A stretch of DNA of 64,000 nt from Gammaproteobacteria bacterium. Its GTDB lineage: Bacteria; Pseudomonadota; Gammaproteobacteria; Arenicellales; JAANXG01. Positions 9,730-60,155 of this stretch are shown here, one piece after another; position 1 is the first letter of the stretch, and each line of letters opens with the position of its first letter. The notes below the pieces were generated by a model. That model worked only from the letters and a program-made list of their open reading frames with translations. It searched no databases and was not told the DNA's origin. Position numbers and translations under genes: made by a program. The stretch lies in assembly GCA_024639325.1 (NCBI GenBank), contig JAHEIO010000002.1:24132-88131 (forward strand). Reading direction: 5' to 3'.

Positions 9730-9848
9730 AAATGCGGATGACCGAATGGCCAGCACGAACTCGGTGCAATTTCGGTAATTGGGGTTGAACGGGTTTGACA
9801 ATACCGAATAACGCGGGTTGTGATGGCTGCGCGCCCGCGGTAACGTCG

Positions 9849-13744: not shown

Positions 13745-13849
13745 GCGAACGAAGTCGAAGCATCGATATTGGAATGATAGGCATCGCCGATCTTCGAAAC
13801 GTCAACGGTATACTTTTTATTCGGGATATGAGCGGATATTATCAAGAGC

Positions 13850-14656: not shown

Positions 14657-14752
14657 CAACCGCCGGAATCAGAGGTCATGGGTCGGCTCGTCGGCAATGC
14701 GGCCGGGTAAGAGGCCCGGCACTGTGCTGGTATACAATATACAAAATTGGCG

Positions 14753-14764
14753 TTTAGGCCTAAA
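14753..14764. promoter_or_regulatory. Perfect 12-bp palindrome upstream of fdsB
   Basis: TTTAGGCCTAAA lies about 22 nt upstream of ATG 14786. It is a possible regulator site, with no further support. Confidence 0.15.
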
Positions 14765-14785
14765 CCCATTTAGAGTAGTGCGACT

Positions 14786-19993: not shown

Positions 19994-20070
19994 GCGCCTG
20001 TAGCTCAGTTGGATAGAGTGTTGGCCTCCGAAGCCAAAGGTCACAGGTTCAAATCCTGTCAGGCGCGCCA
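19994..20070 (+). tRNA. tRNA-Arg (anticodon CCG)
   Basis: Hand-folded cloverleaf of 77 nt. Acceptor GCGCCTG/CAGGCGC, D-arm GCTC-AGTTGGATA-GAGT, anticodon arm TTGGC-CTCCGAA-GCCAA, T-arm ACAGG-TTCAAAT-CCTGT, encoded CCA. Confidence 0.9.
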
Positions 20071-20073
20071 GTT

Positions 20074-26979: not shown

Positions 26980-27969
26980 ATGGCCGTCGCTCTGATTACC
27001 GGCGGGACCGGGTTCATTGGAAGCCATCTCGTGGAAGCCCTGTTGGCAAGGGGTGAGAAAGTGAGATGCCTCGTCCGGTCTCCCGACAAATTGCGCTGGT
27101 TGCGCGGCAGCGATGTTGAGATCGTTACGGGAGACTGTCTGCACCCTCAGAGCCTCGACGCTGCCGTCAGGGGCGTGGACCATGTTTATCACGCCGCTGG
27201 CGTGCTTTGGAGCGCAAATGAACAGGCATATCTTCGCGGTAATGTTCAGGGGACACGCAATCTGATCGAGGCATGTGACCGGGCCAGTCCGGGCCTGGCG
27301 AAGTTTGTGCTGGTATCCAGTCAGGCAGCGGCGGGGCCCGGAACCGGGGGGGGGCCCAGAATAGAGTCTGATGCGCCCGCGCCAATCACGACCTATGGCA
27401 AAAGCAAACTGCTGGCGGAGCAGATCGTTTTGGACTACAAAACCCGGATTTCTGGCGTCGTTGTCAGGCCGTGTGCGGTTTATGGGCCACGCGACACGGC
27501 TTTTTTGGCCTATTTCCGGATAGTTCATCGAGGATTCCTGATAGAATTCGGCGGTGGCGAGGATCGTATCGTCAGTTTGTGCCACGTAAGCGACGTCGTC
27601 GGCGGGATAATCCAGGCGGCGCATGCCGTTTCCGCAGCCAGCGGATCGGTATATTTTCTGGCGGATCCGAAACCTTACCCTTGGCGTGAGGTTGAATCTA
27701 TAATAGAGCAGGCGATGGGCATCAGGGCAAAGCGGCTACGCATTCCGGTTTGGTTTTTGTACGGGCTGGGGATGCTGGGTCAAGGGTATGGCCGCGCCAC
27801 GGGAAAATCTGTTATGTTAAACAGGTCGAGAGTTGCTGAAATGACGGCGCGCCGATGGGACTGTGATGCCGGCAAGGCAAGACGTGAACTGAAGTTCGCG
27901 CCGGTAATGAATCTAAACGACGGCTTACGTGACGTGGTTCGTTGGTATAAACAAGAACAATGGCTATGA
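26980..27969 (+). CDS. NAD-dependent epimerase/dehydratase-family SDR (candidate keto-sphingoid/ceramide reductase)
   Basis: 329 aa with ITGGTGFIGSHL (GxxGxxG) and catalytic YGKSK (YxxxK). Its stop overlaps the start of the next gene (ATGA at 27966-27969). Confidence 0.75.
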   Translation: MAVALITGGTGFIGSHLVEALLARGEKVRCLVRSPDKLRWLRGSDVEIVTGDCLHPQSLDAAVRGVDHVYHAAGVLWSANEQAYLRGNVQGTRNLIEACDRASPGLAKFVLVSSQAAAGPGTGGGPRIESDAPAPITTYGKSKLLAEQIVLDYKTRISGVVVRPCAVYGPRDTAFLAYFRIVHRGFLIEFGGGEDRIVSLCHVSDVVGGIIQAAHAVSAASGSVYFLADPKPYPWREVESIIEQAMGIRAKRLRIPVWFLYGLGMLGQGYGRATGKSVMLNRSRVAEMTARRWDCDAGKARRELKFAPVMNLNDGLRDVVRWYKQEQWL

Positions 27970-29219
27970 CAGACCGGCTATACGCAAAACAGGAATTCAT
28001 CGAAGAAACACCAGAGATTGGCCAGTCCGACACCCGTCCGACCATTTTTGACAAGTGCCGGAAGTATACGCGTGCCCGTGAGGCGATGGCCGCTGGGGTT
28101 TATCCTTACTTTCACCGGATAGATTCCGCCCAGGAACCCGATGTGATCTGTGACGGGAAGCCGATGATCATGATGAGTTCCAATGACTATCTTGGACTGA
28201 CCAGCCATCCCAGGGTGAAGGAAGCGGCAATCGACGCGGTGCGCAAGTTCGGAACCGGGTGCGCCGGGTCCAGATTTCTCAACGGCACGCTGGCAATGCA
28301 CGAGGAGATGGAGACTAGACTGGCGACATTCCTTGGCAAGGAGGCGGCGGCGGTGTTTCCCACCGGATTCCAGGCCAACCTCGGAGCGATTTCTGCTCTG
28401 GTAGGAAAAAGCGAGTACGTCATCATCGATCGTATGAACCACGCCAGCATCTATGACGGCTGCAGGCTCTCCTACGGACAAATCAAAAAATACCAGCACA
28501 ACGACATGGAGAATCTTGAGCGGATCCTCAAAAGCGTCGACGGACGGGGTGCGCTTGTCGTTGTCGACGGCGTGTTCAGCATGGAAGGCGATATCGTGAA
28601 TCTGCCGGGCGTCGTGGAGCTGTGCAAACGTTATGGTGCCGGATTGATGGTCGATGATGCACACAGCATTGGCGTCCTCGGCAAGAACGGTTGCGGCACT
28701 GGTGAACACTTCAATATGGTCGATGAAATCGATCTGATCATGGTCACCTACAGCAAATCGTTGGCAACGATCGGAGGATGCATCGCAGCGAGCGAGGAGA
28801 TGATCCACTATCTTAGGCATCACGCCCGTTCTCTCATGTTTTCTGCCAGCCTGCCGCCGGCCCCGGTGGGCGCCGCGTTGATGGCACTCAATATCATCGA
28901 GGAGGAGCCCGAGCGGCGGGAGCGACTCTGGGACAACGCCAGCTACTTGAGAAATGGCTATCAAAACCTTGGCTTCGATACCGGTGTCAGTGAGACCCCT
29001 GTGGTCCCGGTGGTGGTGGGAGACGAGGAAAAAGTGCTGAAGATGTGGCGGATGTTGTTCGATGCGGGCGTATTCGCCAGTCCCGTCATGTTTCCCGGCG
29101 TGCCACCCGGGATGGCCCTGCTCCGAACGAGCTGCATGGCGACCCACACCGAAGATCACCTGGACAAGGTTCTGGAAACATTTGCCAAAGTCGGGCGTCA
29201 GCTTGATTTGATTTCCTGA
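27960..29219 (+). CDS. Alpha-oxoamine synthase, serine palmitoyltransferase-like (PLP-dependent)
   Basis: 419 aa. SNDYLGL, GSRFLNGT, NHASIYDGC, DDAHSIG, the PLP-lysine TYSKSLATIGG and RERLWDNA are collinear with Sphingomonas SPT (SHASIYDGC, TFSKSVGTVGG, RERLWSNA) as I recall it. The start is 27960 or 27966. Confidence 0.75.
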   Translation: MAMTDRLYAKQEFIEETPEIGQSDTRPTIFDKCRKYTRAREAMAAGVYPYFHRIDSAQEPDVICDGKPMIMMSSNDYLGLTSHPRVKEAAIDAVRKFGTGCAGSRFLNGTLAMHEEMETRLATFLGKEAAAVFPTGFQANLGAISALVGKSEYVIIDRMNHASIYDGCRLSYGQIKKYQHNDMENLERILKSVDGRGALVVVDGVFSMEGDIVNLPGVVELCKRYGAGLMVDDAHSIGVLGKNGCGTGEHFNMVDEIDLIMVTYSKSLATIGGCIAASEEMIHYLRHHARSLMFSASLPPAPVGAALMALNIIEEEPERRERLWDNASYLRNGYQNLGFDTGVSETPVVPVVVGDEEKVLKMWRMLFDAGVFASPVMFPGVPPGMALLRTSCMATHTEDHLDKVLETFAKVGRQLDLIS

Positions 29220-29333
29220 CCCGATCAGGCGCCGGACGCAGAATCTTTTCTCACCTGGACTTTCGCGAGAACGGGTCGCCTCGCCAATTACCCTGTATGA
29301 TGGCTTCTCGACTTCTTACCGAAATCCACCCTG

Positions 29334-30440: not shown

Positions 30441-30450
30441 ATGCGGGTGG

Positions 30451-32961
30451 ATGGCTGAAGCAGGCGCGGCAACGGTTTTGGAAGCGGGCGCGGACGACCC
30501 GCCCAAACCTCGTATTCCCGAAAAGCACGTCACCTTCCTCGATCACTGGATTTCATTCCTGATCGCTGCCTACATTCCCTTTCTGCTGGTCGCCGGTGTG
30601 CTCAGTTACTTCAGTTTTGAGATCGCTAAAGGTCTCAAGCTGGATGCTAACATCACATCGCTGATGCCCGACGGCGTGCCCAGTGTCGACAATCTTAAAA
30701 CCGTCATCGATAAAACCGGCGGGTACAACAACGCGATGATACTTGTGGAATCACCGGATCCGGAAATCGCGTTTCGCTATCTCGATGATCTGGGCGCAAG
30801 GATCAGGCAAGAGGACTGGGTTACCAGCGCCGAGTACTCAGAGAACACTGCGATATTCGAACGCAACAAGCTGATTTATGTCGATCAGGAGGATTTGCAG
30901 GAAATGGACCGGCGCCTGGCTGAGCGCATGGAATTCGAGAAAAAGAACCTCGACTTCAGTGTCGATGGGATCCCGGTGGAAGTCACTATCCGTGATGCAC
31001 CCAGAACCCGTCCGGCACTCGAGTTCGAGGACATCGAGTCGAAGTACCGGCGGAAGCAGGCGGGCAGCAGTACCACCAAGTTGTTCACCAGCGAATCTAA
31101 GGATCTGACTATCCTGGTTGTGTTTCCCCAAGGAGGCACCACCAATGTTAAGTACTCCAGAAAAATTATCCGGGATCTCGAGGCGATCATCGCAGAGTCC
31201 GACGCTCAGTCGTACCATCCGGAACTGCGCGTAACGATTGGTGGAAGGATCGCAAATCGCGTTGCCAGCTTCGACTCCATCATGAGCGATGTCAAAGATA
31301 GCGGCTTGTGGTCGATTCTCGCCATATTCCTGGTGGTCGTGCTGTTTTATCGCCGTCTCATGGCAATCTTCTACATCGGGTTGCCGCTCAGCGTCGGATT
31401 TCTGCTCACATTTGCATTGACCAAACTGGTACTGGGCGGGCTCAATCTGGTCACGGTTTTTCTGGTGCTAATTCTGTTCGGACTGGGCATCGACTTCGGA
31501 ATCCACAATCTGGCCCGGTATGACGAAGTTAGAAAGAGCGGCGCCAATATGAGGACCGCGCTCAGAACGATCTACGCGAAAACCGGCCAAGCCTCGCTGC
31601 TGGCGGGGATCACCACGACATGCGGTTTTTATTCCCTGATGTTGACCAACTTCAAGGCGTTCTCGGAGTTTGGCTTCATCGCGGGCAGCGGTATTGTGCT
31701 GACCTTGTTCACGATGTACGTGTTTTTTCCGGCGCTGATGATTTTCGCCGAGAAAATCAGATTGTATCGACCGCCTCGATTCAGTCAGATTCAAAAAAAA
31801 TTAAAGACGCGGCCGTTTCCGGGAGTGGGGCCGATCATGGGCCTTGGAACGGTTTTTGTCTTCGCCGCGTTCTATCTGGCGCCAAATATACAGTTCGAGG
31901 ACGATTTCGGAAAAATAAAGACGAAAGTGCCCGAAATTTCCGAGACCAACGACAAGATAAGGAAAGTGTTTCCCCTGCGCACCGACAAAGCCATGGTGTT
32001 CGTCGAGCAGCTTGAAGACGTGGCGCCGCTGGTGGATGAACTCGAAAAAATCAGGCTCTCCAGGAGCGGTGACGACGTTACCATCGAGAAAGTCAAGTCG
32101 ATCTACAGCGTGGTTCCAAAGTCGGAGGATCAGTACGAGCGTTTGGAGGCCATCGACAGCATTCAACAGAAACTGTTGGAAGCGAGGCGATTGCTCAATG
32201 ATTTCAGTACCGAGAACGATCCGCGAAAACAGGACATCGAAGAAGCACTTCAATATTTCGGCGTGTCGCCGCTGACCGCTCAAGACCTGCCGACCGCGGT
32301 CCAGCGGATGTATACGGGATCGCCGGAGTCGGGCGGATATCTCGTCTATATCTACAACAGCAAAGGCATGTCCAAGCTAGAGAATGCCGAAGCTTTTGTG
32401 AATGACATCCGCGAAATCGAGGCCAATGGTAAAAAGTTCTACCCCGCGACCGAGGCGATGATATTCGTCGACATGATCAACCTGATGAAGCAGGATGCGG
32501 CGCGTGCGATTGGTGTCGTGTTGGCCTCGGTTTTCATCGTTCTTCTGGTTGCGCTCAGGCGACTGAAGCACACCATCGTGGTTATGGTTCCCGTTGTAAT
32601 TGGTATGCTATGGATGCTAGGCCTGATGGTGGCCCTGGACATTCGGCTGAACATTTTCAATATGGTAGTACTGCCCACGGTGCTCGGCATAGGGATCGAT
32701 AACGGCATCCATATTTTTCATCGCTACCAGGAAGAAGGCGGCCGTGTTTTCCACGTTGTCAGAACCACGGGCGGCGCCGCTTTCCTGACCACGCTGACGA
32801 CTATGCTTGGTTTTGCCGGGACGTTGACCGCGTCGAATCAGGGTCTGCAGTCGCTTGGCCTGGTGGCGTGCCTGGGATTGACCTGCTGCATGGTCAGTTC
32901 ACTTACGGTTTTTCCCGCTATCCTGCAGTGGACGGATACTGTCCGTAACGCCAGATCATGA
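30451..32961 (+). CDS. MMPL/RND-superfamily lipid exporter
   Basis: 836 aa with two repeats of a periplasmic loop plus a 5-6 TM bundle (e.g. LILFGLGIDFGIH and VLGIGIDNGIHIFHR), the typical MMPL/HpnN-like architecture. Confidence 0.8.
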   Translation: MAEAGAATVLEAGADDPPKPRIPEKHVTFLDHWISFLIAAYIPFLLVAGVLSYFSFEIAKGLKLDANITSLMPDGVPSVDNLKTVIDKTGGYNNAMILVESPDPEIAFRYLDDLGARIRQEDWVTSAEYSENTAIFERNKLIYVDQEDLQEMDRRLAERMEFEKKNLDFSVDGIPVEVTIRDAPRTRPALEFEDIESKYRRKQAGSSTTKLFTSESKDLTILVVFPQGGTTNVKYSRKIIRDLEAIIAESDAQSYHPELRVTIGGRIANRVASFDSIMSDVKDSGLWSILAIFLVVVLFYRRLMAIFYIGLPLSVGFLLTFALTKLVLGGLNLVTVFLVLILFGLGIDFGIHNLARYDEVRKSGANMRTALRTIYAKTGQASLLAGITTTCGFYSLMLTNFKAFSEFGFIAGSGIVLTLFTMYVFFPALMIFAEKIRLYRPPRFSQIQKKLKTRPFPGVGPIMGLGTVFVFAAFYLAPNIQFEDDFGKIKTKVPEISETNDKIRKVFPLRTDKAMVFVEQLEDVAPLVDELEKIRLSRSGDDVTIEKVKSIYSVVPKSEDQYERLEAIDSIQQKLLEARRLLNDFSTENDPRKQDIEEALQYFGVSPLTAQDLPTAVQRMYTGSPESGGYLVYIYNSKGMSKLENAEAFVNDIREIEANGKKFYPATEAMIFVDMINLMKQDAARAIGVVLASVFIVLLVALRRLKHTIVVMVPVVIGMLWMLGLMVALDIRLNIFNMVVLPTVLGIGIDNGIHIFHRYQEEGGRVFHVVRTTGGAAFLTTLTTMLGFAGTLTASNQGLQSLGLVACLGLTCCMVSSLTVFPAILQWTDTVRNARS

Positions 32962-33765
32962 CGCGGTTTCGAAATCCCGCAGCGGGCGATTGCTGAACTT
33001 GTCCCACGCCGTCTCTTTGTCTGTTTCTCTGGCCAGAATGCTGCCGTCTGGGCGGCGCTCCAGGGTCGGATCGATATAGTATCGGCCGAGCTTTCGGCCG
33101 TCTGCCGGTTCGAACGTATCGCCCAGATATCCCTTTGCGTTCAGATTCAGGATCGTCGCGGGTTCGCCGTCCGCGCCAAACCAGTGCGCGTTGTCCGTAT
33201 ACTCGGTGGTTTTGAAATATTCGTAAGGTGCCAGGATCCGGTCACTGGTTTGCCTCACGGCGAGGGTTCGGTCGTCGATGCGCCGGATCCGCTCGTACTG
33301 CCGAACGTGGGCCTTGCCCTTCAACACGACCTGTGTCGAGACGAGGTTGTGGTGAGCATGCGGCGGCTGACAGGAGTTGGGGGCGACCCACCAGAGCTGC
33401 AGCCGCCAGAGCTTATCAGCGCCGGATCGCGTGATCAGTTTCACCCTTGGGCGGCCATCAGCGAGATCGATCATTCCCTCGTAGATGTCGCGATTGATGT
33501 CGATTTCCTGATAGTACTTGCCAAGCTCCTCTGAAAAGTGCTCGGCGGTGATCTGCTTCGCCTCCAGTCGATTGATCAACTCAACGACCTTTCGGTACAA
33601 CGCACTTTCCGCCGTCGCATCGTTGTCGATGTTCAATAGCTGAAGCAGCCTGGGAACGGCGAAAGGGGAGGCCGCCACCCCGATTCCAATTGCCGCAGAC
33701 AACAGTATGAAGTCACGGCGCTTTACACGATCCATTGCCGGGACGTGATGCACTTGTTCGGTCAT
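32956..33765 (-). CDS. Tat-exported hypothetical protein (possibly cupin-like)
   Basis: Twin-arginine motif MDRVKRRDFILLSAAIGIGVAA and the His-rich segment PPHAHHNLVSTQVVLKG. The start is uncertain: GTG 33801, ATG 33765 or ATG 33735. Confidence 0.55.
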   Translation of the reverse strand: MTEQVHHVPAMDRVKRRDFILLSAAIGIGVAASPFAVPRLLQLLNIDNDATAESALYRKVVELINRLEAKQITAEHFSEELGKYYQEIDINRDIYEGMIDLADGRPRVKLITRSGADKLWRLQLWWVAPNSCQPPHAHHNLVSTQVVLKGKAHVRQYERIRRIDDRTLAVRQTSDRILAPYEYFKTTEYTDNAHWFGADGEPATILNLNAKGYLGDTFEPADGRKLGRYYIDPTLERRPDGSILARETDKETAWDKFSNRPLRDFETAS

Positions 33766-33797
33766 AACGGGACTCTGGAATTCATATGAGCAGTATA

Positions 33798-35033
33798 TCA
33801 CCGCTCATGATTGACGACCGTAGAAACGTGTTTTCTCGAGATTGCCATGGCCATGGCAAAGTGGATACTGATGAACAATATTCCAGCCATGCTAATCCAG
33901 AACAACAGGTGATATCCAAATGGTGTGCCCGTGATCATGGGCGTAATTGACAGCAGAAACACGACGAATGAAAAAGAATCCCGTTTGCCGAGGATCTTCA
34001 GGCTGTCCAGCGCCTTGAACAGCCAGTTGGTCGGCGCTTCGCCCATTTTCTGGCCCAGATCCTGATGCACGGCCGTCATCGTCCCGGGCTGCCGGGTGTC
34101 CACGAGATACCAGGTCATGCCGCCAACCAGCACCAGCATCAACAGCACCATGCTGATGCCGAGCGGAAGCACCCATCCCGCAATCGCGTATTCGTGAGCC
34201 AGGGTGTAGCGTTCATATCCGATGATCAGGCAGACGGCGAACACCACGTATACCAGGTTGTCGCCCACCGTGTCGATCCAGGCGCCCAGCGGAGATGCGC
34301 GGAATGTGCTTCTGGCCAGCTCCCCATCGACCCGATCCAATGCCGCGCACAGTTGGAACAGCGTGCCGCCGATGGCCACGTCGGTCAGCCTGCCCCGGGA
34401 GACGAACCATGCGCTGATGAACCCCACGATGGTTGCCACCAGCGTCATCTGGTTGGGCGTGACGCCGAATTCGCAAAGCACTCGGCTGATAGGAATCGAG
34501 ATCCGCGAGTTCAGGTTGCGTGAAATCGGGCCGGATGTTGATTTGGTTACGTTGGCAAAAATGGCGTCTTTGGCGGCCTTGATATCTTGATGCTCGATCA
34601 CGGGGACGACATAGGCTCCCGTCGGCGAGTCCGGGCGCCAGAGGGGTTCCGGTGCCGAAGACCCGGTTCGTTCCATGCGTGGCGCCGCCGGCACGAATGC
34701 GGGATGTTCACATTCGGAAAGCAATTGCCATACCGGGTTTCCAACGACCACGTTGGCATCGACATGGATATCGGTTTTTTCAATCCGGGTTTGGGAAGTT
34801 TCCCAGCGAATGCCCCTGCCTTTCAGCCGCGGATCATCGCCACATCGGGATCGCGCCGTATCCGCATAGGATCCCGCAACCGAGATTTCGCCGGCGCCCG
34901 CCTGCATGGCGCCCAGGATCAATCGCGTCAGCACCATCACCCCGGCCACCTTCAGAAATGCCGGACTTTCTTCAGGCTCCACATCGGGGAGGTGGATGGT
35001 GACGGTGAACGCTTCCGGTTCAGCTCGATTCAT
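33798..35033 (-). CDS. CDP-alcohol phosphatidyltransferase with degenerate nucleotidyltransferase-like N-terminal domain
   Basis: 411 aa with an intact signature DRVDGELARSTFRASPLGAWIDTVGD (DGxxARx8Gx3Dx3D). The linker TKSTSGPISRNLNSRISIPISR resembles IPCT-DIPPS fusions. The N-domain lacks the GxGxR loop. Confidence 0.8.
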   Translation of the reverse strand: MNRAEPEAFTVTIHLPDVEPEESPAFLKVAGVMVLTRLILGAMQAGAGEISVAGSYADTARSRCGDDPRLKGRGIRWETSQTRIEKTDIHVDANVVVGNPVWQLLSECEHPAFVPAAPRMERTGSSAPEPLWRPDSPTGAYVVPVIEHQDIKAAKDAIFANVTKSTSGPISRNLNSRISIPISRVLCEFGVTPNQMTLVATIVGFISAWFVSRGRLTDVAIGGTLFQLCAALDRVDGELARSTFRASPLGAWIDTVGDNLVYVVFAVCLIIGYERYTLAHEYAIAGWVLPLGISMVLLMLVLVGGMTWYLVDTRQPGTMTAVHQDLGQKMGEAPTNWLFKALDSLKILGKRDSFSFVVFLLSITPMITGTPFGYHLLFWISMAGILFISIHFAMAMAISRKHVSTVVNHER

Positions 35034-36237
35034 ATTGATGCTTCTCGCCGCTCATGGGCAGGTATATGAACCTCATGAGATGGAATGCCAGAGTCAAAAC
35101 GTACCAGACGGTTATCAGTATCAATCCGATCTCCGCATCGCCGAGGATCAGCGCGATGAGCATGCACAACAGGAATGGATTCCGGCGTGCAATGAAGATC
35201 CGGACGGAATAATCGAGCCTGGTATAGTCGTGAAGTTCGTAACCGTACAACCGCTTGTACAGACCGGTGGCGATCTTGTCCGCAAGAAATGACGCTATCA
35301 GTAATGCGTGGATCTGCGCGATCTGATTGGACATATCGAGCAAGGCCCCGCCGCTCAGCGACCATCCGAGGCCGATGTACCATGCCAGCAGATACACGAA
35401 ATCGGAGACATGGTCCAGCAGATCCCCCGACCTGCTGGTCCTCATGGTTACCCTCGCCAGCTTGCCGTCTACGGTATCCAGAAACGCCATGGCAAACCCC
35501 ATGATCGTGGCGACCCAGTAATGACCGGTGAAAAACGGAACTATGGCCCCGAAGGACAAAAGCATGCTGAGCAGGGTGACCTGATTGGGTGTGATCGCAG
35601 TAGGGCTGATCATCCTTACCACCCACCGGGCCGGCAGGTAAAAAACATACTTGGTTATAAAATCGGTGGCGCCTTTGTAAACGGCTGCGAAAGTGATTTT
35701 TTCAGCAAGACGCAAATCTTCGCCGGAGTTCACGGCTATGACGAACGCGCTGACGCGTTTGCGGGTCGCCTGTATGTAGGTGCTGATGTCGGATTCGTGA
35801 ACCAGTTCTGCGGCGTTATCCAAATACCCTGCATGCGTTGTCGCGCCGACAAACCGATTGTCCATGTCGCAGCGGGTGTCCCGACCGGTTTCCTTGAGAT
35901 ACTCCAGAATACGGTTGTCGACCACGACGCCGGCATCGATGACCAGAGCGCGCCCATTGAATGCGGGAATTGAGCGTTCCGTCGAACCCTGGTCTATCTC
36001 CACCGTATCTACCCGTATCTTCGTCCATTTTGAAAAATCCCGCCGGACGAAGTCCTGCAACTGCAGGGGGGAACCACATATGACGCTAGCCTGATCGATG
36101 CCGATCTGAGAAAGCTGGCGCAGCAGCCGCTCCAACAGCGTCATGCCCCACAGGTTTGCCATGGCAAATCGGCCCGTGGCGATCACGTAGGCCCTGGAAA
36201 CACCTCTCGGAATTTCTGAGTTTGATTTGATTATCAT
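35020..36237 (-). CDS. CDP-alcohol phosphatidyltransferase with degenerate nucleotidyltransferase-like N-terminal domain (tandem paralog)
   Basis: Signature DTVDGKLARVTMRTSRSGDLLDHVSD. The start was set at ATG 36237 (MIIKSN...), which forms an ATGA overlap with the upstream flippase stop. The ORF-track extension to 36891 overlaps the flippase gene in another frame. Confidence 0.75.
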   Translation of the reverse strand: MIIKSNSEIPRGVSRAYVIATGRFAMANLWGMTLLERLLRQLSQIGIDQASVICGSPLQLQDFVRRDFSKWTKIRVDTVEIDQGSTERSIPAFNGRALVIDAGVVVDNRILEYLKETGRDTRCDMDNRFVGATTHAGYLDNAAELVHESDISTYIQATRKRVSAFVIAVNSGEDLRLAEKITFAAVYKGATDFITKYVFYLPARWVVRMISPTAITPNQVTLLSMLLSFGAIVPFFTGHYWVATIMGFAMAFLDTVDGKLARVTMRTSRSGDLLDHVSDFVYLLAWYIGLGWSLSGGALLDMSNQIAQIHALLIASFLADKIATGLYKRLYGYELHDYTRLDYSVRIFIARRNPFLLCMLIALILGDAEIGLILITVWYVLTLAFHLMRFIYLPMSGEKHQYESS

Positions 36238-37493
36238 TGGGCTGCCAGGATGCGCCGAACCACCGAACGGCCAAATAGATAAAGCAGTACGAAGTTTACC
36301 AACTGGCCCAGAGGGGCGCCAGTTTGGCCGATCCAGTAAATCATGATGACCGTCGTCGCCAGGCCGGCGATGCCCGCCATGCGCTCCCATATCAACGGCG
36401 CATCTGCCCCGCCTTTCACGACTATTACCGACAACTGGTATTCCGCGAGGCCGTTGAAAATGAACGCGATTGCCAAAATGGCCATTATCGGCCAGGCATC
36501 CGCGTAGGCGTCGCCACCGATCAACCGGACGAGCCACGGGCTGAGGCAAGCCGTTAACAACGGCAGCACGATCATGATCGAATAGTAGAGGCGCCGGTCT
36601 CGGCGGTAGCTCACTGCGTCGAGACCCGCGGCCAGCCTGACCGACAGCGGTCCGGCGAGTATCCTGGCGAGCTGGCTGAGTACCTGTGCCCCCTGCCGCG
36701 CGATGTGGTAACTGGCCATTTGAGCGAGCGGCAGCATGACGGCAATTACGACCCGGTCCAACTGGCGGAAGCCGCGACGGTAGAGCACCCGCTGATAGTC
36801 GGGAAAACAAGCCCTGAGTCGTTTTATCGCGCCGGCCGGGGACAGGGCTTGTAAACTGATGCGCATCAAGATGCTGCGAAGACTCCAGCACGCCAGCAAG
36901 AAGGTAATGAGTACGCCGATCATCAATCCTGCGAACAGGTAATCGACGCCCAGGGCCAGATACAGCAGGAAGGCAAACAGTTTTTCACTCGTTGCTGATC
37001 CCGAGTCGAGTAAAGAATCCAGCCAATACTGCTGCCGGGCGAAAAAAACCGGCGTCAGGATGTACTGGAAGTTTTTCAGCAGAACATGCGTGAAGACGAA
37101 CGGTAGGGCCATCTTAACGTTGATTTCAGGCGCGGCGGCCTGCAGTTCGTCCAGGAATAAATAGCCAAGAACCAGCAGCAGCGCAACAAATCCAATAGTT
37201 GCAGACAGCCGGATCAGCGTCGCCGGCCCGATGACCTTCTCCACGGCTTCTTCGCTCAGGCCCTGATCGATGAGTGGTGTGGCTTCCCGTATGACCTGAA
37301 AATGCAGGCCAAAGTCCAGCAACACCTTGGTCAGCATTACGATTGCGGCATGAACTCCGATCAGGCCCAGCACGGGTTTCGGCAGCTCGCGCGCGAAGTA
37401 AGCCAGAAACAGCAGCGACACCACCGCAACGGCGGCCCGGCTGATTACGATCTCGATAGCGGCGTGCAGTAGGCTTTTATGTTTGGCCTGCAT
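36234..37493 (-). CDS. MOP-superfamily (Wzx-like) polysaccharide/lipid flippase
   Basis: 419 aa, highly hydrophobic with about 12 predicted TM segments, and a general resemblance to polysaccharide biosynthesis (Wzx) transporters. Confidence 0.55.
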   Translation of the reverse strand: MQAKHKSLLHAAIEIVISRAAVAVVSLLFLAYFARELPKPVLGLIGVHAAIVMLTKVLLDFGLHFQVIREATPLIDQGLSEEAVEKVIGPATLIRLSATIGFVALLLVLGYLFLDELQAAAPEINVKMALPFVFTHVLLKNFQYILTPVFFARQQYWLDSLLDSGSATSEKLFAFLLYLALGVDYLFAGLMIGVLITFLLACWSLRSILMRISLQALSPAGAIKRLRACFPDYQRVLYRRGFRQLDRVVIAVMLPLAQMASYHIARQGAQVLSQLARILAGPLSVRLAAGLDAVSYRRDRRLYYSIMIVLPLLTACLSPWLVRLIGGDAYADAWPIMAILAIAFIFNGLAEYQLSVIVVKGGADAPLIWERMAGIAGLATTVIMIYWIGQTGAPLGQLVNFVLLYLFGRSVVRRILAAQ

Positions 37494-37565
37494 GGATCTA
37501 ACACACCCGACGGTCGCTGTGCCGGTCCGGATTCCGGCACCGTCCGAGTACAGAAAAGGTATCGC

Positions 37566-38351
37566 CTAGGAAGCGACCAGCGACAAATTTGAATTCGCCA
37601 GTTTTGAATTCGATTGGCGGACCCAGTTCGAAACCATGGTTTCGGCTTGTGTCCTGTCGACGGGAAAATCCACCTCACACCAGTCCAGTCCCTCGATCGA
37701 GCGAACCTCTACCCGGTTTGTCTGGGCGATGGCACCAATCGCGGACAGATACCAGATGTCAAGCGCGCCATCCGACCTCATCAGCTCGTTCAGCGTGTCG
37801 ACGAAAATACCGGGTCCTTTCCCGTGGAAATAGATCATTCCGATGGACTCGCCGCCGATCCGGTCTGTTGTCAGGTTTTTTCCGATCTCCAGAAGAGTGC
37901 TTCCATCGAGGTGGACCTTCATGTCGTCCTCATCGTAGTGGTCTTTCTTGTCGATGGCCAGAGTAATTGGTGCGGCGGGTTCGTTGAGCAGCCGCCTCAG
38001 TATGTGATAGTGGAAGATTGTGTCACCGTTGATCAACACGAAGTCCGCATCCATGACCCGTCGTGCCATCCAGCAGCTCACAAGATTGTCGGCTACCGCA
38101 TAGAACGGGTTGAATATAGCGTTGATCGTGCATCCTTTATAGACCAGCCTCAACTCGGCAATTTCGTCCTGCAGCACCCGCGCCTTGAATCCGGTGATTA
38201 CGTATATCTCGTTTATGCCGCACTTCGTGAGTTGAGATACCTGCCAGTCCAGCATGCTCCTGCCGGACAGCGCGATCGTCGATTTGGGCCGATCCGACGT
38301 CAACGGCAGCAGACGCTTGCCCTGACCGGCGCCTAGAATAATAGCTTTCAA
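37566..38351 (-). CDS. Nucleotidyltransferase (sugar/alcohol-phosphate cytidylyl- or nucleotidylyl-transferase)
   Basis: 261 aa with N-terminal MKAIILGAGQGKRLLPLTSDRPKSTIAL (GxGxR + PK motif) of the NTP_transferase fold. Confidence 0.8.
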   Translation of the reverse strand: MKAIILGAGQGKRLLPLTSDRPKSTIALSGRSMLDWQVSQLTKCGINEIYVITGFKARVLQDEIAELRLVYKGCTINAIFNPFYAVADNLVSCWMARRVMDADFVLINGDTIFHYHILRRLLNEPAAPITLAIDKKDHYDEDDMKVHLDGSTLLEIGKNLTTDRIGGESIGMIYFHGKGPGIFVDTLNELMRSDGALDIWYLSAIGAIAQTNRVEVRSIEGLDWCEVDFPVDRTQAETMVSNWVRQSNSKLANSNLSLVAS

Positions 38352-38487
38352 TATTCGTCCCCGAAATAGTAATAGTTATACGCCGTGCTTTATAGCAATT
38401 CACTCTGAAAGTTGCAAAGCGACGGCGCCGGTTCGCGCGGTATGACAAGCGATTGGCGTCAAAAGGCAATAAATTCGAGAATCCGGG

Positions 38488-39528
38488 TCATACCGGCCGG
38501 CTCGCCTGCCTGAGTTCGGTGTAAAGCTCATCCAGCGCGTCGCAAACATCGTCATCGCTGGTTCTGGATATCAATTCGTCATTGATGTGAAAGGATTTGT
38601 AGGTGAGGTTCATGCTGCCCAGGAATGCGCACCGGAATCGATGTTGTTGGGGACCAAGGGGCTCGACGAGCACGAACTTGCAATGCATGGGCAACAGCTC
38701 GGGATGGACGTAACGAAACGCACGAATACCGCTGTCAGATAGTTTGTTTACCGTCTTTTGCGGAAATCTCCGCTCACTGTCGTGGCCGATGACTTCGATA
38801 TGGCTTCCCGAGGCAGCGAGTCGCCGCAACAGGTTCAAGGCCCCTGCATCAGAGATATGGGACACCGCAACTCTGATTTTCAGTTCATTTCCGGGTATGA
38901 GCCCGCGGCGCAGGTAGTCGATCAACAGGTTATCGCGTCGCGAGGGAAGGAACTGCAGGTCGATGTTCCCAAAACTTTCCGGCGGTGATGAAAACCGCCG
39001 TCGGGGGTGGCTGAACAGGGTGGCGAGGTGCTGGCGAACATAGCGGTAGAGGAGAGCGTTTCCGTAAATCCGCAGTAGCAGATTGTATCCCGAATCCTGG
39101 TCGCCTATGACATCGAATACTTGCTGTTCGGCGACGTCGTTTCCGGAAGGATTGTAGGTGCCAAACAGGCATATATTGGATCGGCTTCCGGCCTTGGATG
39201 CCAGAAACAGCTTTAAATGCATCCGACGTTTGAGCAGGTTTGCAGGATGGCGAAAGGCCAGGGTCGACGAATCGAAGCCATGATCCTTCAGAAATTTCTC
39301 TGCTGCCAGGTTGCCGGGTTTATAGTAGGTGTTTCCGGACAGCAGCAGTTTCACTTTTACGCCCCGTCCATGTGCCTCGACCAGTGCCTTACAGAACCTC
39401 ATATTGCGCAGGTAGTAGGTTGCAATGAAAATTTCTTCACCTGAGGGTACGGAGTGGATCAGTTTCAACAGTGACTCGAGCAGTAGTGAGGGCGTGGTGG
39501 GGCGATTGACGAGCAGTGCGATGTCCAC
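38488..39528 (-). CDS. Phospholipase D superfamily protein (two HKD-like motifs)
   Basis: 346 aa with MHLKLFL...GTYNPS and MHCKFVLVE...GSMNLT, i.e. two HxK...G(S/T)xN motifs. The acidic position is non-canonical in the first motif. Confidence 0.7.
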   Translation of the reverse strand: MDIALLVNRPTTPSLLLESLLKLIHSVPSGEEIFIATYYLRNMRFCKALVEAHGRGVKVKLLLSGNTYYKPGNLAAEKFLKDHGFDSSTLAFRHPANLLKRRMHLKLFLASKAGSRSNICLFGTYNPSGNDVAEQQVFDVIGDQDSGYNLLLRIYGNALLYRYVRQHLATLFSHPRRRFSSPPESFGNIDLQFLPSRRDNLLIDYLRRGLIPGNELKIRVAVSHISDAGALNLLRRLAASGSHIEVIGHDSERRFPQKTVNKLSDSGIRAFRYVHPELLPMHCKFVLVEPLGPQQHRFRCAFLGSMNLTYKSFHINDELISRTSDDDVCDALDELYTELRQASRPV

Positions 39529-39597
39529 TGGTGCTGTATGCGGATTAGTCCAATTAGTACCACGCTCGGTACAGGGGTAGGCTACGCAATATGCGGT

Positions 39598-40629
39598 CTA
39601 CACGCCGGCAGGCGGGACCACCGGAAGTCCGGGATCGTTGGTGTCTTGTTTTCGCCAGCCATCGAGAGCGCTCATCTGGTGTACGCAACTCAGCGTGCAG
39701 TATGGCGCGCATTCTTTTCGGGTGTCGAACTCCCTCTCGATATCCCGTTGCGTGTACTGAGTTATCGGTATGCCCGGATAACCCCGGCGTTGGGAACACA
39801 GGTGCACGTTGCCATCTTCACAAATATACAGATACCTGGACCCGGCCCGGCACTTCCAGGAGTTTGGCTTTCCGCGCATCAGATTCTTTTGAAACAGCTT
39901 GTAGTTGACACTGTGTGATATGGAGTGAGAGAGCCCGGTGACTCGTTTGTACGTGTCGAACTGCAGCTCGCTGAAAGGTTTTATCTTCCCGGTATCGTCG
40001 TGTAGTACGCCCACGCTGTGGAAAAAACCGTACTTCCGAGCCGTTTTTGCGACGGCGAATGCATCTTCGGTTCTTTCGTCGCTTATGCCAAGAACGGAGT
40101 TGACATTGACTTTGAACTTGGCGTGCATCGACAGCAACTCTAGTTTGCTTTCGATGGCGTTGAGGCTTTTTTGGGAGACGTCATCCGGCTCCAGGTTGTC
40201 AATGCTGATCTGCATCTCCTGGAGGCCACAGTCATTCAATTCGCGGATACGTCTTTCGTTCAACCGGTACCCATTGGTGATCATGGTCGCGATCATGCCC
40301 TTGCCTCTTATCAGGCGGATGACCCTGGTCAGGTGGGGATTCATGAGGGGTTCTCCCCCGGTGCATGTAATCGCCGCCGTGTTGAGTCTGTAGAGTGCTT
40401 CCACCCGTTCCGCCAGTAGTTCGGCCGGTACCGGGGGCGAAAAATCATCGTATTCGTTGCAATATCCGCAGCTCAGATTGCATCTGCGAGTGACCACCAT
40501 CTGCGCGAGCAGCGGATTGTAGCGCGAGGACAATGCTTTCCATAAAAAACGCCCGATACCCGGGCCCATGCCGTTTCCGATTGATTCGTACGTCATTGAC
40601 ATGTTTGAATTGCGCTGTTTAGCCCCCAT
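39598..40629 (-). CDS. Radical SAM enzyme with C-terminal Cys-rich (SPASM-like) region
   Basis: 343 aa with the CNLSCGYC (CxxxCxxC) cluster motif, the GGEP SAM motif, and a C-terminal WKCRAG...YICEDGNVHLC...CAPYCTLSC region. The start is uncertain among N-terminal Mets. Confidence 0.75.
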   Translation of the reverse strand: MGAKQRNSNMSMTYESIGNGMGPGIGRFLWKALSSRYNPLLAQMVVTRRCNLSCGYCNEYDDFSPPVPAELLAERVEALYRLNTAAITCTGGEPLMNPHLTRVIRLIRGKGMIATMITNGYRLNERRIRELNDCGLQEMQISIDNLEPDDVSQKSLNAIESKLELLSMHAKFKVNVNSVLGISDERTEDAFAVAKTARKYGFFHSVGVLHDDTGKIKPFSELQFDTYKRVTGLSHSISHSVNYKLFQKNLMRGKPNSWKCRAGSRYLYICEDGNVHLCSQRRGYPGIPITQYTQRDIEREFDTRKECAPYCTLSCVHQMSALDGWRKQDTNDPGLPVVPPAGV

Positions 40630-40750
40630 TTATCGAATGAGTAGCGGTTTGACTTATATGCGGCTTCCGTTACCGAAACGCTCGATGTGAGTCGTTTCGG
40701 ATGTGGGGACGCAATATTACCTCATCTGGTCATCGGTTTGATGCATTGTT

Positions 40751-41416
40751 TTGAATAAGCGATTTATTGTTCGCTGCGCGCTGGTTGCGTTGCTGGCGGG
40801 AGACGGGCCGTTCGCCGTTGCCGAGGACCTTTGCGGTGAAATTCCTCCCGCGGCATTCAAGTCGCTGGAAGGCACGGCGTTCGAAAAGGTCAGGATCCAG
40901 GCGGATGAGATAGAATTTCCCGGCCGTAATGTCGTTATCCTGCGCGGTTACACCCAGTTGTTCAGGGGTGGACACCGGGTCAACTCGGATGCACTGGTTT
41001 ACTACAAGGCTAGGAACACGGTGGAGGCGAGGGGCTCCGTTACACTGCAGACCCGGAAAGGGGACGTCGTGAAGACGGACGTTCTGGCCTACGACATAAA
41101 AACCGGCATGGCCGTATCCGGCCCGGCGGAGTTTTCGATAGCAAACCGCCGGAGCGAGGTTCTTGGTTCGGCGGATAGTACCGTCAATGCCTTTGGAACA
41201 GCGGCGCGGGTCATGTTCGAGTCCGCCGATATCATGCTGCTGGAGGAAGCGGATGTTACGAGTTGTCTCGACGGTGAAAAAGACATTACTTTCCATGCCG
41301 TAAAGCTGCGGGTCGATCTAAACGAAGGCGTGCGCACCGGGACCCGTGTGAAGATCAGGATCGAAAATCCCGGTAAACACCGAAAACTGAGTGAACTCCA
41401 GAGGCTTATAGAGTGA
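40751..41416 (+). CDS. LptD N-terminal (OstA/beta-jellyroll) domain protein; truncated relative to full-length LptD
   Basis: 221 aa with a signal peptide. ...VRIQADEIEF..NVVILRGYTQLFRGGHRVNSDALVYY...EARGSV... and DVTSCLDGEKDITFHAVKLRVDLNEGV..TRVKI parallel E. coli LptD residues up to ...[26 protein letters not shown]..ARFKV. The ORF then stops where the LptD beta-barrel would begin. Confidence 0.65.
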   Translation: MNKRFIVRCALVALLAGDGPFAVAEDLCGEIPPAAFKSLEGTAFEKVRIQADEIEFPGRNVVILRGYTQLFRGGHRVNSDALVYYKARNTVEARGSVTLQTRKGDVVKTDVLAYDIKTGMAVSGPAEFSIANRRSEVLGSADSTVNAFGTAARVMFESADIMLLEEADVTSCLDGEKDITFHAVKLRVDLNEGVRTGTRVKIRIENPGKHRKLSELQRLIE

Positions 41417-41467
41417 GTAATATCTCGCGCAGGCACACCGCCTCAGCGAGATCCGGTCAGCGTTCGC

Positions 41468-42298
41468 TCAGGTCGCAGTTCGATCTGCCGTTCCGTCGGC
41501 ATAGTTCAACAAGGCATCCCGAAGATTTCTGTTGGTGCGACGTTGAGTTCTTCGCAACCAGATCAGCAGGCCGTTCAGCAGTATTATCTCGTAGAGAAAA
41601 AAAAGAATCGGTATTTTCGCCATACAGGATAGCGACAAGGCGATTGTCCTTTTATTGGAGCTCAACAATGTCCACAGACGGACGCTGCGCAGTGAGTGCG
41701 CCTGGTATGTTTTGCCGAATGTCCCCCGATCCGGGTGGCCACGCAGTTCTCTTTCGGCACTGATCAACTCATTGTCCGGCTCGGAAACCAGGTGCTGCAA
41801 TCTGACATACACACAATGACCCGCACGGAGCAGCGTGGCAGCGACCCCTGATCTGAAATCCAGTTCTATCGGATCTAGTGTTTGTGAGCATTTTCCGGTG
41901 TTACCATGCACCCAGCAGTCGTAATTATCCCGGTGAAATTCCAGGGCACCGGCCTGCAGTGCATGGCTCAGGCCCGCTGCAATTGCCAACAACCATATCG
42001 ACGTCCCGTATTGGGGTTGAAGCGCCAGAGCCAGGGCAACATAGACCATGCCGAAGCCCAGGTGGTCGCACAGGCCGTCGATAACTTTTCCAAACTCCGA
42101 TGTCGTTCCGGTCAATCGCGCCAGTTGCCCATCTGCGCCGTCGAGGACGTGCCACCCCGTCATGAAGACCAATCCCAGCATGGACATCGTGATGCTCTGG
42201 TAGTTATAGAAGCACCATGAAGCGATTAGTGCACTTGCCATGCCGAGTAGCGAAACAGTGTTCGGACTCCAGCCCCATAGCGCAAAAAGGCGGGTCAA
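41468..42298 (-). CDS. CDP-alcohol phosphatidyltransferase (stand-alone)
   Basis: 276 aa with the signature DGADGQLARLTGTTSEFGKVIDGLCD and multiple TM segments. Confidence 0.8.
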   Translation of the reverse strand: MTRLFALWGWSPNTVSLLGMASALIASWCFYNYQSITMSMLGLVFMTGWHVLDGADGQLARLTGTTSEFGKVIDGLCDHLGFGMVYVALALALQPQYGTSIWLLAIAAGLSHALQAGALEFHRDNYDCWVHGNTGKCSQTLDPIELDFRSGVAATLLRAGHCVYVRLQHLVSEPDNELISAERELRGHPDRGTFGKTYQAHSLRSVRLWTLLSSNKRTIALSLSCMAKIPILFFLYEIILLNGLLIWLRRTQRRTNRNLRDALLNYADGTADRTAT

Positions 42299-55113: not shown

Positions 55114-55191
55114 ATTCGATCTGGCGGCGCTGCCATTTCCGGCGGCGCCGCACGCCCCGGAATTCATACAGTTGTAGCGGGATCCGTCCCG

Positions 55192-57311: not shown

Positions 57312-57313
57312 TC

Positions 57314-60100: not shown

Positions 60101-60114
60101 CGGAAATGGTCAAA

Positions 60115-60150
60115 TTATACAATCGTTCAAAATATTAAACAATTGTATAA
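60115..60150. promoter_or_regulatory. Candidate operator: 9-bp perfect inverted repeat in a divergent promoter region
   Basis: TTATACAAT (60115-60123) and ATTGTATAA (60142-60150) are separated by 18 nt. They lie in the AT-rich 55-bp gap between the TetR-Rieske gene and the amine oxidase gene. Confidence 0.4.
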
Positions 60151-60155
60151 GTTTT

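Follow-up and report, generated by a model that had tools for sequence, protein, structure and literature searches.

A probable sphingolipid locus joins putative Kennedy-type head-group genes to an unnamed radical SAM family and a PLD-fold module

Bacterial sphingolipids have only recently been seen as widespread outer-membrane lipids, and it was in 2022 that the core pathway (Spt, bCerS, CerR) became settled. To our knowledge, few steps of their head-group enzymology are known, for example those of CpgB and CpgD in Caulobacter. The Caulobacter set is composed of the ceramide kinase CpgB, CpgC, CpgD and CpgA, encoded next to spt, cerR and bcerS. In this pathway, CpgD is a cytidylyltransferase of the COG1213/IPCT-like type that makes cytidine diphosphate (CDP)-glycerate, and the ceramide lipid receives its phosphoglycerate through CpgA, which has a PgsA domain (PMC12275187, PMC9393093). 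Radical S-adenosylmethionine (SAM) enzymes that remodel lipid head groups are also known, namely HpnJ and the calditol synthase Cds, and a review from 2026 on radical SAM enzymes that modify lipids reports none for sphingolipids (PMC13459092). We searched the literature for a radical SAM enzyme with a role in the synthesis of bacterial sphingolipids and found none. Here we describe a gene locus that appears to bring these two kinds of chemistry together. It lies in a stretch of 64,000 nucleotides (hereafter the window) from a Gammaproteobacteria bacterium of the order Arenicellales (assembly GCA_024639325.1, contig JAHEIO010000002.1, positions 24,132 to 88,131). We read the approximately 15-kb locus at 26980-42298, with moderate confidence, as making a phospho-alcohol sphingolipid with a Kennedy-type head group and a radical SAM step on the polar head. 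What the sequences show directly is gene identities, motifs, purifying selection, conserved neighborhoods and gene fusions.

The core of the locus is a string of seven co-directional genes on the minus strand, running from 40629 to 32956. The string is headed by the gene of a radical SAM enzyme with a predicted twitch-like four-Cys auxiliary site (39598..40629; 343 amino acids, ATG start; Pfam Radical_SAM 7.8e-19), since the upstream neighbor at 40751-41416 is on the opposite strand. Next come the genes of a predicted soluble, bilobed phospholipase D (PLD)-superfamily enzyme with two HKD motifs (38488..39528; 346 amino acids, GTG start; Pfam PLDc_2 3.7e-23) and of a nucleoside triphosphate (NTP)-transferase of the LicC/IPCT/CpgD type, which is COG1213-like (37566..38351; 261 amino acids, TTG start; Pfam NTP_transferase 8.7e-12). 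The gaps are 69 bp between the radical SAM and PLD genes and 136 bp between the PLD and NTP-transferase genes. An earlier note on this DNA, made by a model from the sequence alone, had described these three genes as leading a lipid operon, and our Pfam matches, coordinates and gap lengths agree with it. In a related metagenomic contig (L091), the entire locus is syntenic with the window, with protein identities of 94% (radical SAM), 88% (PLD) and 96% (NTP-transferase). The dN/dS values against this contig are 0.16, 0.30 and 0.32, respectively, and all three genes are under purifying selection. Given the synteny and the low dN/dS, they are therefore functional genes.

The radical SAM protein belongs to its superfamily, with a score of 68.9 bits against Pfam Radical_SAM (PF04055; cutoff 29.5). 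We followed the conservation of its Cys residues in 60 orthologs down to 37% identity. Both the CX3CX2C motif (C50-X3-C54-X2-C57) and the GGE motif (G91, G92, E93) are invariant. Four Cys residues in the C-terminal part, C260, C278, C307 and C311, are also 100% invariant, while C315 is conserved in 92% of the orthologs and C270 varies. The additional Cys cluster near the C terminus that had been pointed out in the earlier note is therefore real and its conservation, proposed there as a check, is complete at four positions; the SPASM label attached to it has to be dropped. The pattern C-X12-G-X4-C ... C-X3-C corresponds to the first half of the SPASM motif followed by a short second half, the seven-Cys SPASM motif (CX9-15GX4C - gap - CX2CX5CX3C - gap - C), which ligates two auxiliary clusters, is absent, and Pfam SPASM (PF13186) gave no match at E<=0.01. 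From this spacing we predict one fully Cys-ligated auxiliary site, and the auxiliary domain appears to be twitch-like with a single four-Cys site rather than a full SPASM domain. The assignment fits with the fold matches, which include SkfB, MoaA and SpeY. The true start of the protein is possibly M21, as in the gene call of locus L084 (323 amino acids).

No Pfam-specific, NCBIfam or PADLOC curated family reaches its cutoff on the radical SAM protein, and a sequence search of the PDB returned generic matches only. The best PDB folds for its AF2 model (pLDDT 77.7, pTM 0.81) are BlsE, SkfB, DesII, PqqE, anSME, viperin and MoaA. BlsE, DesII, viperin and MoaA act on nucleotide-linked or sugar substrates, and SkfB, PqqE and anSME modify peptides or proteins. 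Many Arg and Lys residues are invariant in the protein, which suggests an anionic substrate. An indexed search returned at least 8000 matches, and among 50%-identity representatives, searched exhaustively, 196 clusters matched at E<=1e-30; alpha- and gammaproteobacterial members share 60-70% identity. The protein thus represents a large and conserved unnamed family with thousands of sequences.

To describe the genomic context of this family, we scanned one genome per species and retrieved 80 other loci, 59 of which have intact homologs (36-71% identity). We clustered the flanking open reading frames (ORFs) and counted the neighbors out of these 59. The loci come from Gammaproteobacteria, Acetobacteraceae, Nitrospirillum, Rhizomicrobium and Caulobacterales, as well as from Gemmatimonadota, Dehalococcoidia, Acidobacteria, Myxococcota and Verrucomicrobia. 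A CDP-alcohol transferase of any type is found near the radical SAM gene in 28 loci, an NTP-transferase in 25, a family 4 glycosyltransferase (GT4) of type a in 24 and of type b in 21, a flippase in 22, a Spt-like alpha-oxoamine synthase in 14, myo-inositol-phosphate synthase (MIPS) in 11, and a GNAT-like candidate N-acyltransferase also in 11. In 16 of the 59 loci, from Alphaproteobacteria, Acidobacteria and Verrucomicrobia, the radical SAM gene has at least one sphingolipid marker beside it (a Spt, CerR-like, GNAT, Lipid_DES or FA_hydroxylase gene). Overall, the family adjoins sphingolipid or lipid head-group genes in at least six phyla. Because its context is lipid and head-group biosynthesis in so many phyla, the earlier proposal that head-group chemistry here involves more than a simple CDP-alcohol transfer is a reasonable one.

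The short CpgA/PgsA-like CDP-alcohol transferase at 41468..42298 (minus strand; Pfam 8e-13) is the partner with which the radical SAM gene is conserved in other lineages. Its homologs (34-41% identity) lie within about 5 kb of the radical SAM gene in 22 of the 59 loci, and the pair is kept on the P0016 contig, where the PLD module is absent. Larger blocks are also seen. In Lichenicola, CDP-alcohol transferase, IPCT-like NTP-transferase, MIPS, Gly_transf_sug and GT4 genes lie together with those of the radical SAM enzyme and a flippase. The gene order is radical SAM > GT4 > PIG-L in a Chromatiales metagenome-assembled genome (MAG), and GT4 > radical SAM > PIG-L in Nitrospirillum, Rhodospirillales and Chromatiales loci. 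In verrucomicrobial loci, Lipid_DES (of the sphingolipid delta4-desaturase type) and FA_hydroxylase genes adjoin Spt.

True members of the family, with 38-46% identity over their full length, also occur in gene fusions (representative-library matches P0184, P0187, P0174 and P0202, and L092 9001-10671). Fusions with a family 2 glycosyltransferase (GT2) are 556-594 amino acids long, have 13 cluster members and are found on more than 30 contigs as a stand-alone gene; in P0187, one of two GT2 fusion proteins, the GT2 part most resembles polyprenyl-phosphate sugar synthases. Other fusions join the radical SAM enzyme to a VTT/DedA domain (587 amino acids) or to a SAM-dependent methyltransferase (746 amino acids). 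A further candidate was set aside. In a Gemmatimonadota MAG (L025), a 632-amino-acid ORF at 8103-10001 carries both a CDP-alcohol transferase domain and a radical SAM domain and sits between the radical SAM ortholog and an upstream gene at 3744-8045, which encodes a 1433-amino-acid PlsA-like protein (BcrAD_BadFG + DUF2229). The radical SAM domain of this fusion is only 29% identical to the window protein, and it is therefore a paralog.

We analyzed the PLD-fold protein in an alignment of 15 sequences. Its first motif has invariant H104/K106 and G123..N126-P-S..N130, with Ser111 in place of the canonical Asp, and its second has invariant H282/K284 and G304-S..N307, with Glu or Asp at 289; two HKD-like motifs, the first without Asp, had thus been read correctly from the single sequence. 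PLDc_2 (PF13091) matches in two stretches with 82.2 bits (cutoff 27), which places the protein in the PLD superfamily, whose canonical motif is H-x-K-x4-D-x6-G-x2-N. The AF2 model (pLDDT 91.8) has a bilobed two-HKD fold, whose matches (TMq 0.63-0.72) are PPK1 C-terminal domains, bacterial PLD, PLD3/4 and PssA, with Haemophilus influenzae PssA at TMq 0.63. No sequence match was found in the PDB, no Cls or Pss model of NCBIfam matched, and no obvious transmembrane segment was seen by eye, no transmembrane prediction having been run. A putative role as transphosphatidylase, proposed in the earlier note, is plausible.

The NTP-transferase, whose sequence starts MKAIILGAGQGKRL, scores 45.6 bits against its Pfam model (cutoff 21.2). 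Cytidylyltransferases of the COG1213 type (LicC, IPCT, CpgD, PntC) carry an N-terminal G-x-G-x-(R/K)-L signature. The best solved relative of the window protein is LicC (1jyk, 8.8e-11), and the PntC-type structure 6pd1 matches residues 2-228 at 3.5e-5; no NCBIfam equivalog cutoff is reached. The enzyme presumably makes a CDP-activated head-group precursor.

Unlike the radical SAM family, the PLD family is rare, with 49 matches. The co-occurrence of the two genes in the window, as described by the earlier note, does not extend to the other loci: none of the 80 others fetched with the radical SAM query has a PLD homolog, and the two genes are neighbors only in this locus, which L091 keeps in synteny. 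In relatives with 70-76% radical SAM identity, radical SAM, CDP-alcohol transferase and MltA genes are kept and the PLD module is absent. Elsewhere, PLD homologs recur with the partners known from the window, the radical SAM gene being absent there. The CDP-alcohol transferase beside the homolog of L087 is 39% identical over its full length to the fusion-type enzyme of the window (35020..36237), and in L090 a 31% homolog lies near fusion-type CDP-alcohol transferases and an NTP-transferase 43% identical to that of the window. PLD homologs also adjoin NeuB/CMP-nonulosonate genes in L089 and L090, and some of them, such as L086 and L088, have no lipid context. Since the PLD module is missing in the 70-76% relatives and recurs elsewhere, the operon is a composite of two parts. 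One part is the old pair of radical SAM enzyme and CDP-alcohol transferase, and the other a separately mobile module of PLD, cytidylyltransferase and fusion-type transferase genes, possibly with the flippase.

Two of the related loci deserve a description of their own. The L087 cluster of a Spirochaetota MAG (8568-19158) is of the phosphonate head-group type and hosts a PLD homolog with 48% identity, which is placed between CDP-alcohol transferases; the cluster comprises three long ones of these, a CTP_transf_like~PEP_mutase fusion, phosphonopyruvate decarboxylase, Fe-ADH and a flippase. The L001 cluster (12291-14222), from a gammaproteobacterial MAG whose radical SAM protein is 70% identical, is the nearest relative outside the window's own lineage. 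It is devoid of the PLD gene and of a separate NTP-transferase, and it adds an LpxO/OlsC-like Asp/Asn beta-hydroxylase and a second radical SAM gene, which, in contrast to the window protein, does match SPASM.

The surroundings of the string point to sphingolipids. On the plus strand, a CerR/HpnA-like reductase of the NAD-dependent epimerase/dehydratase family (26980..27969; Pfam Epimerase 2.1e-40; HpnA 162 bits, below cutoff) overlaps the start of a Spt-like alpha-oxoamine synthase (27960..29219; Pfam Aminotran_1_2 7.5e-59). Among NCBIfam models, the latter scores highest with serine palmitoyltransferase (528 bits), and BioF and Kbl rank lower. The Spt-like protein is 39% identical to the corresponding gene product of an acidobacterial radical SAM locus (L036), and the CerR-like protein is 32.5% identical to its equivalent in L059. 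Further along the same strand lies an HpnN-like RND/MMPL lipid exporter (30451..32961; Pfam MMPL 4e-39; NCBIfam HpnN 299 bits, below cutoff). Because Spt-like, CerR-like and HpnN-like exporter genes lie beside the operon, the locus probably makes a sphingolipid and not an ordinary phospholipid. The lipid operon of the earlier note thus stands, with this probable correction to the kind of lipid, given the Spt-like and CerR-like genes at 26980-29219.

The remaining genes of the string, all on the minus strand, encode a candidate flippase of the MOP/Wzx-like type (36234..37493), supported by TuaB/MOP NCBIfam matches and a weak Polysacc_synt match (Pfam 0.0015, below cutoff); the fusion-type CDP-alcohol transferase at 35020..36237, with an N-terminal NT-like domain (Pfam CDP-OH_P_transf 5.3e-12; PDB 4mnd 1.5e-7); a second long, DIPPS-like CDP-alcohol transferase (33798..35033; Pfam CDP-OH_P_transf 1.2e-9; NCBIfam IPCT/DIPPS 96 bits, below cutoff; PDB 4mnd 7.2e-15); and, as last gene, a 281-amino-acid protein (32956..33801). 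Each of these four genes runs into the next, with overlaps of 4, 14 and 4 nucleotides. The first of these overlaps, with the flippase stop, depends on the start of the fusion-type transferase, which we took from the L084 and L091 gene calls. Divergent from the radical SAM gene is that of a secreted OstA/LptA-like protein with a signal peptide and weak LptA/LptD N-terminal matches (40751..41416, plus strand), found at the same position in L001, L002 and L091 and a candidate periplasmic lipid carrier. The HpnN-like and OstA-like genes are interleaved with the string, an arrangement kept in L001 and L091. Two proteins have no family match. The product of 32956-33801, which overlaps its neighbor by 4 nucleotides, carries a twin-arginine-like signal, RRDFILLSAA (VKRRDFILLSAA), as well as stretches rich in His; its conservation in L091 is 93%, Pfam and NCBIfam searches assigned it to no family, and it could be a cofactor-containing periplasmic tailoring enzyme. 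Between the Spt-like and HpnN-like genes, 29334-30440 (plus strand) encodes a 368-amino-acid protein that is conserved in L091, has a signal peptide or lipobox-like N-terminus and matches no known family. A role as periplasmic partner to the exporter is possible; we considered the protein as a ceramide synthase because of its place after the Spt-like gene and discarded the idea, as it is dissimilar to the GNAT-like candidate.

Put together, these genes suggest a pathway; its enzymatic steps, the nature of the alcohol and the co-transcription of the genes are all inferred. Synthesis of the ceramide backbone would involve the Spt-like and CerR-like enzymes. The NTP-transferase would use CTP to activate a small phospho-alcohol, which at least one of the three CDP-alcohol transferases would place onto ceramide or a growing head group, in the manner of CpgD and CpgA. 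Phosphocholine is a speculative choice for this alcohol, because LicC is the best relative of the NTP-transferase and choline/betaine-type catabolic genes are present elsewhere in the window. The MOP-type protein would then flip the lipid over the inner membrane, and the HpnN-like pump and the OstA-like protein would take it outward to the outer membrane. As for the PLD-fold enzyme, it would form a covalent phospho-histidine intermediate and transfer or trim a phosphodiester-linked head group, its gene having arrived with those of the NTP-transferase and the fusion-type transferase as a separate mobile module.

The radical SAM enzyme most likely works on the polar head and not on the hydrocarbon chains. 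Its substrate may be a cyclitol or sugar alcohol, the CDP-activated form of it, or the lipid-attached head group, from which the 5'-deoxyadenosyl radical would abstract a hydrogen atom. Twitch and SPASM enzymes that pass on an electron during oxidation or rearrangement (BtrN, anSME) typically have a fully ligated auxiliary cluster. In the window protein, the fully Cys-ligated cluster could likewise be an electron conduit, as in the twitch-type oxidations and rearrangements of BtrN, anSME, BlsE and DesII. We favor action on the polar head because head-group machinery is the element common to the ceramide-type and PlsA-type contexts, because the family is fused to GT2, and because GT4, PIG-L and MIPS neighbors recur in the relatives. 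The GT4 > radical SAM > PIG-L order in particular recalls Cds and the set formed by HpnI, HpnK and HpnJ, which are a glycosyltransferase, a deacetylase and a radical SAM enzyme, respectively. Since the window has no MIPS or glycosyltransferase genes, the part of the argument based on glycosyltransferases rests on the relatives and not on the window locus.

Several observations weigh against a sphingolipid head-group pathway. The 528 bits of the Spt-like protein are below the NCBIfam Spt cutoff of 640. Our search of the window found no ceramide synthase and no ceramide kinase, no MIPS or glycosyltransferase gene exists in the 64 kb, and PIG-L, GNAT-type ceramide synthase and PEP mutase homologs are missing from it as well. 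The fold matches of the radical SAM model are generic (TM-scores <=0.58), and 16 of the 59 loci have no lipid marker within reach, several of their contigs being short. Co-transcription is deduced from spacing and synteny: promoter and terminator scans performed no better than on shuffled sequence and are therefore uninformative in this respect, and the Rfam scan for riboswitches or other RNA elements upstream returned a tRNA elsewhere as its sole match in the window. Finally, Polysacc_synt-type flippases and PLD homologs linked to NeuB and CMP-sugar genes would also fit a glycan. This last point leads to the view that the product is not a lipid but a phospho-alcohol glycan, a teichoic-acid-like polymer or a solute of the di-inositol-phosphate type, with Spt nearby by coincidence. 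The two long CDP-alcohol transferases do resemble IPCT/DIPPS, the maker of a soluble solute, the flippase is of the polysaccharide (MOP) type, and the NeuB neighbors of L089 and L090 agree with it. A non-lipid product is nevertheless less likely because the linkage with Spt recurs, with sphingolipid markers in 16 loci of three groups; moreover, the conserved interleaving of the HpnN-like and OstA-like genes, the IPCT/DIPPS scores far under cutoff, the lack of MIPS in the window and the Caulobacter precedent, which ties the same enzyme pair to ceramide, make it quite improbable in our judgment. We find it decidedly hard to credit that the PLD gene is an unrelated insertion, namely a nuclease or defense gene of the Nuc/DrmC/DpdK type. 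Its absence from the 80 other loci, L001 (the 70% relative) and P0016 (the 76% one) among them, and the homologs without lipid context (L086, L088) are what one would expect of such a gene, and its only family-level matches are weak ones to NucT, DpdK and DrmC. Those matches are short and far under cutoff, however, and the bilobed two-HKD architecture is like that of PLD, Pss and PPK1 and not of the single-domain Nuc type. The PLD gene is also co-oriented with its neighbors across the 69- and 136-bp gaps, with a dN/dS of 0.30, and an insertion is unlikely above all because the partners recur, with homologs of 31-48% identity present in two unrelated lineages, surrounded by genes of NTP-transferases and fusion-type CDP-alcohol transferases.

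The same weighing applies to the substrate of the radical SAM enzyme. Most characterized lipid radical SAM enzymes act on chains (PMC13459092), and the enzyme could modify the hydrocarbon part as Tes, Mss, GrsA/B and HpnH do, for instance through a C-C cross-link, a chain branch, O2-independent desaturation or hydroxylation, or adenosyl addition. Weak matches to Tes (NF045702, 51.3 bits) and HpnH (TIGR03470, 35.3 bits, residues 36-279), the PlsA-like ether-lipid enzyme adjoining the Gemmatimonadota locus and a fatty-acid desaturase beside the radical SAM gene on the P0016 contig speak for chain chemistry. Yet every chain-modifying family scores far under its cutoff (450 for Tes and 225 for HpnH), so that the analogy with hopanoid side-chain or membrane-spanning lipid formation drawn in the earlier note is not supported. 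Ceramide and PlsA-type glycerolipid contexts share the CDP-alcohol transferase and glycosyltransferase machinery and not the chain type, the fusion partners are GT2, DedA and methyltransferase domains, verrucomicrobial loci already carry an O2-dependent sphingolipid desaturase and hydroxylase, and the invariant Arg and Lys residues would suit an anionic substrate. On balance, we consider chain modification unlikely. Even less can be said for a known non-lipid type of radical SAM protein, such as the cofactor enzyme MoaA, a peptide maturase or a prokaryotic viperin. The best NCBIfam match is indeed MoaA (TIGR02666, 66.4 bits), prokaryotic viperin (pVip) models reach 55-61 bits, and SPASM peptide maturases are among the weak matches. 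These matches span the core motif only (approximately residues 44-185; 45-185 for MoaA, 44-149 for the PADLOC pVip model at 60.7 bits) and are 3- to 10-fold under cutoff, with MoaA at 284 and viperin (NF038283) at 51.2 bits against 180. Searches of the flanks found no convincing precursor-peptide ORF, no molybdopterin or kinase partner genes adjoin, and the lipid and head-group neighborhood is consistent. Membership in these families is effectively refuted, and we attach next to no probability to it; of them, the earlier note had named MoaA and a peptide maturase with an adjacent precursor as what would overturn its reading.

What is preferred, then, is a radical step on the polar head of a sphingolipid. 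More tentatively, and as a possibility that we hold with lower confidence than the reading of the locus itself, the whole family may perform a new and widespread radical step in the building of the polar heads of bacterial sphingolipids and related lipids. Such a step would be, for example, an oxidation, rearrangement or ring contraction of an inositol or amino-sugar head group or of its CDP precursor. The family is in this sense a specific candidate for new head-group chemistry, and it has cultured carriers in Nitrospirillum amazonense, Acidisoma cellulosilyticum and Gluconacetobacter tumulicola, with orthologs of 59-62% identity. If the proposal is true, there is a class of soil-bacterial sphingolipids with head groups that lipidomics has yet to see, and the step spans Alpha- and Gammaproteobacteria, Acidobacteria, Verrucomicrobia, Myxococcota and Gemmatimonadota. 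The PLD module, for its part, seems to serve with more than one kind of activated head group, phosphonates included.

Outside the locus, the window holds a few other features. A 611-amino-acid ORF at 58265-60100 (minus strand) combines N-terminal TetR/BetI-type repressor and C-terminal Rieske/ring-hydroxylating oxygenase domains, which are either truly fused or belong to two genes that were read through. Near it are an ABC uptake system (53998-58168) and an amine oxidase (60027-61445), and farther away a dimethylglycine/sarcosine-type oxidase with DAO and GCV_T domains (11297-13744). A tRNA gene at 19994-20067 (plus strand) abuts the gene of an 809-amino-acid HerA/DUF87-like ATPase (20074-22503, minus strand), and the AT skew around 19994-22503 is strongly negative (-0.11 to -0.15); the region may be the edge of an integrated element. 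The most extreme AT skew of the window (-0.25) is that of the gene at 48528-51176 (minus strand), which encodes an 882-amino-acid Ser/Thr protein kinase with C-terminal Sel1 repeats.

Among described systems, the PLD-fold protein is best compared with PssA, cardiolipin synthases and PPK1 C-terminal domains, with which it shares the bilobed fold and two H-x-K motifs. Transferases of the PLD superfamily use a phospho-histidine intermediate, and the donor of PssA is CMP-linked. The window protein differs from them in its first motif without Asp, in the lack of a curated family match and in the small size of its family. For the radical SAM protein, the twitch-related enzymes BtrN, SpeY, BlsE, DesII, MoaA and viperin, which act on sugars, cyclitols and nucleotides, offer a partial TIM-barrel core followed by a C-terminal C-X(n)-G-X4-C ... 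C-X(2-3)-C site. Its best fold and sequence matches are among them, but they have 13-20% identity to it and TM-scores no higher than 0.58, so the type of reaction is not transferable, and we know of none of them encoded in a lipid locus.

The CDP-inositol route of archaea and Thermotoga (IPCT/DIPPS) also pairs an NTP-transferase with a CDP-alcohol transferase. MIPS, which is coupled to that route, lies beside 11 of the 59 relatives and, unlike there, is absent from the window. The best solved relative of the two long transferases of the window is an IPCT/DIPPS structure (4mnd), while the three candidates score 63.9, 56.6 and 96.1 bits against IPCT/DIPPS (NF041135), below its cutoff of 580. The 'alternative' inositol-lipid cluster proposed in Prevotella and Bacteroides vulgatus includes a HAD hydrolase but lacks a radical SAM enzyme (PMC9246714).

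HpnJ resembles the present family by its association with a glycosyltransferase and a PIG-L-type deacetylase, which is seen in the relatives of the window and not in the window itself. HpnJ and Cds (Saci_1489) act on polar heads of membrane lipids that derive from sugars. The lipids of HpnJ and Cds are hopanoids and glycerol dialkyl glycerol tetraethers (GDGTs), whereas a sphingolipid is expected here; the likeness is by description, and no HpnJ or Cds model is among the best 25 of 58 NCBIfam matches. Closest of all is the Cpg pathway of Caulobacter, where a cytidylyltransferase and a CDP-alcohol transferase within a sphingolipid locus lead to an anionic outer-membrane sphingolipid. Cytidylyltransferase-type, CDP-alcohol-transferase-type, Spt-like and CerR-like genes are all present in the window, without the LCB5-domain kinase CpgB or a ceramide synthase. 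Conversely, the Cpg pathway has neither a radical SAM nor a PLD-fold enzyme, and the window has both, together with three CDP-alcohol transferases, two of them long and IPCT/DIPPS-like, whose likeness to CpgA, as that of the NTP-transferase to CpgD, is by description only. Kennedy-type sphingolipid head-group pathways and head-group-tailoring radical SAM enzymes are thus already known kinds, and what this locus adds is their undescribed combination, the radical SAM family and the PLD module.

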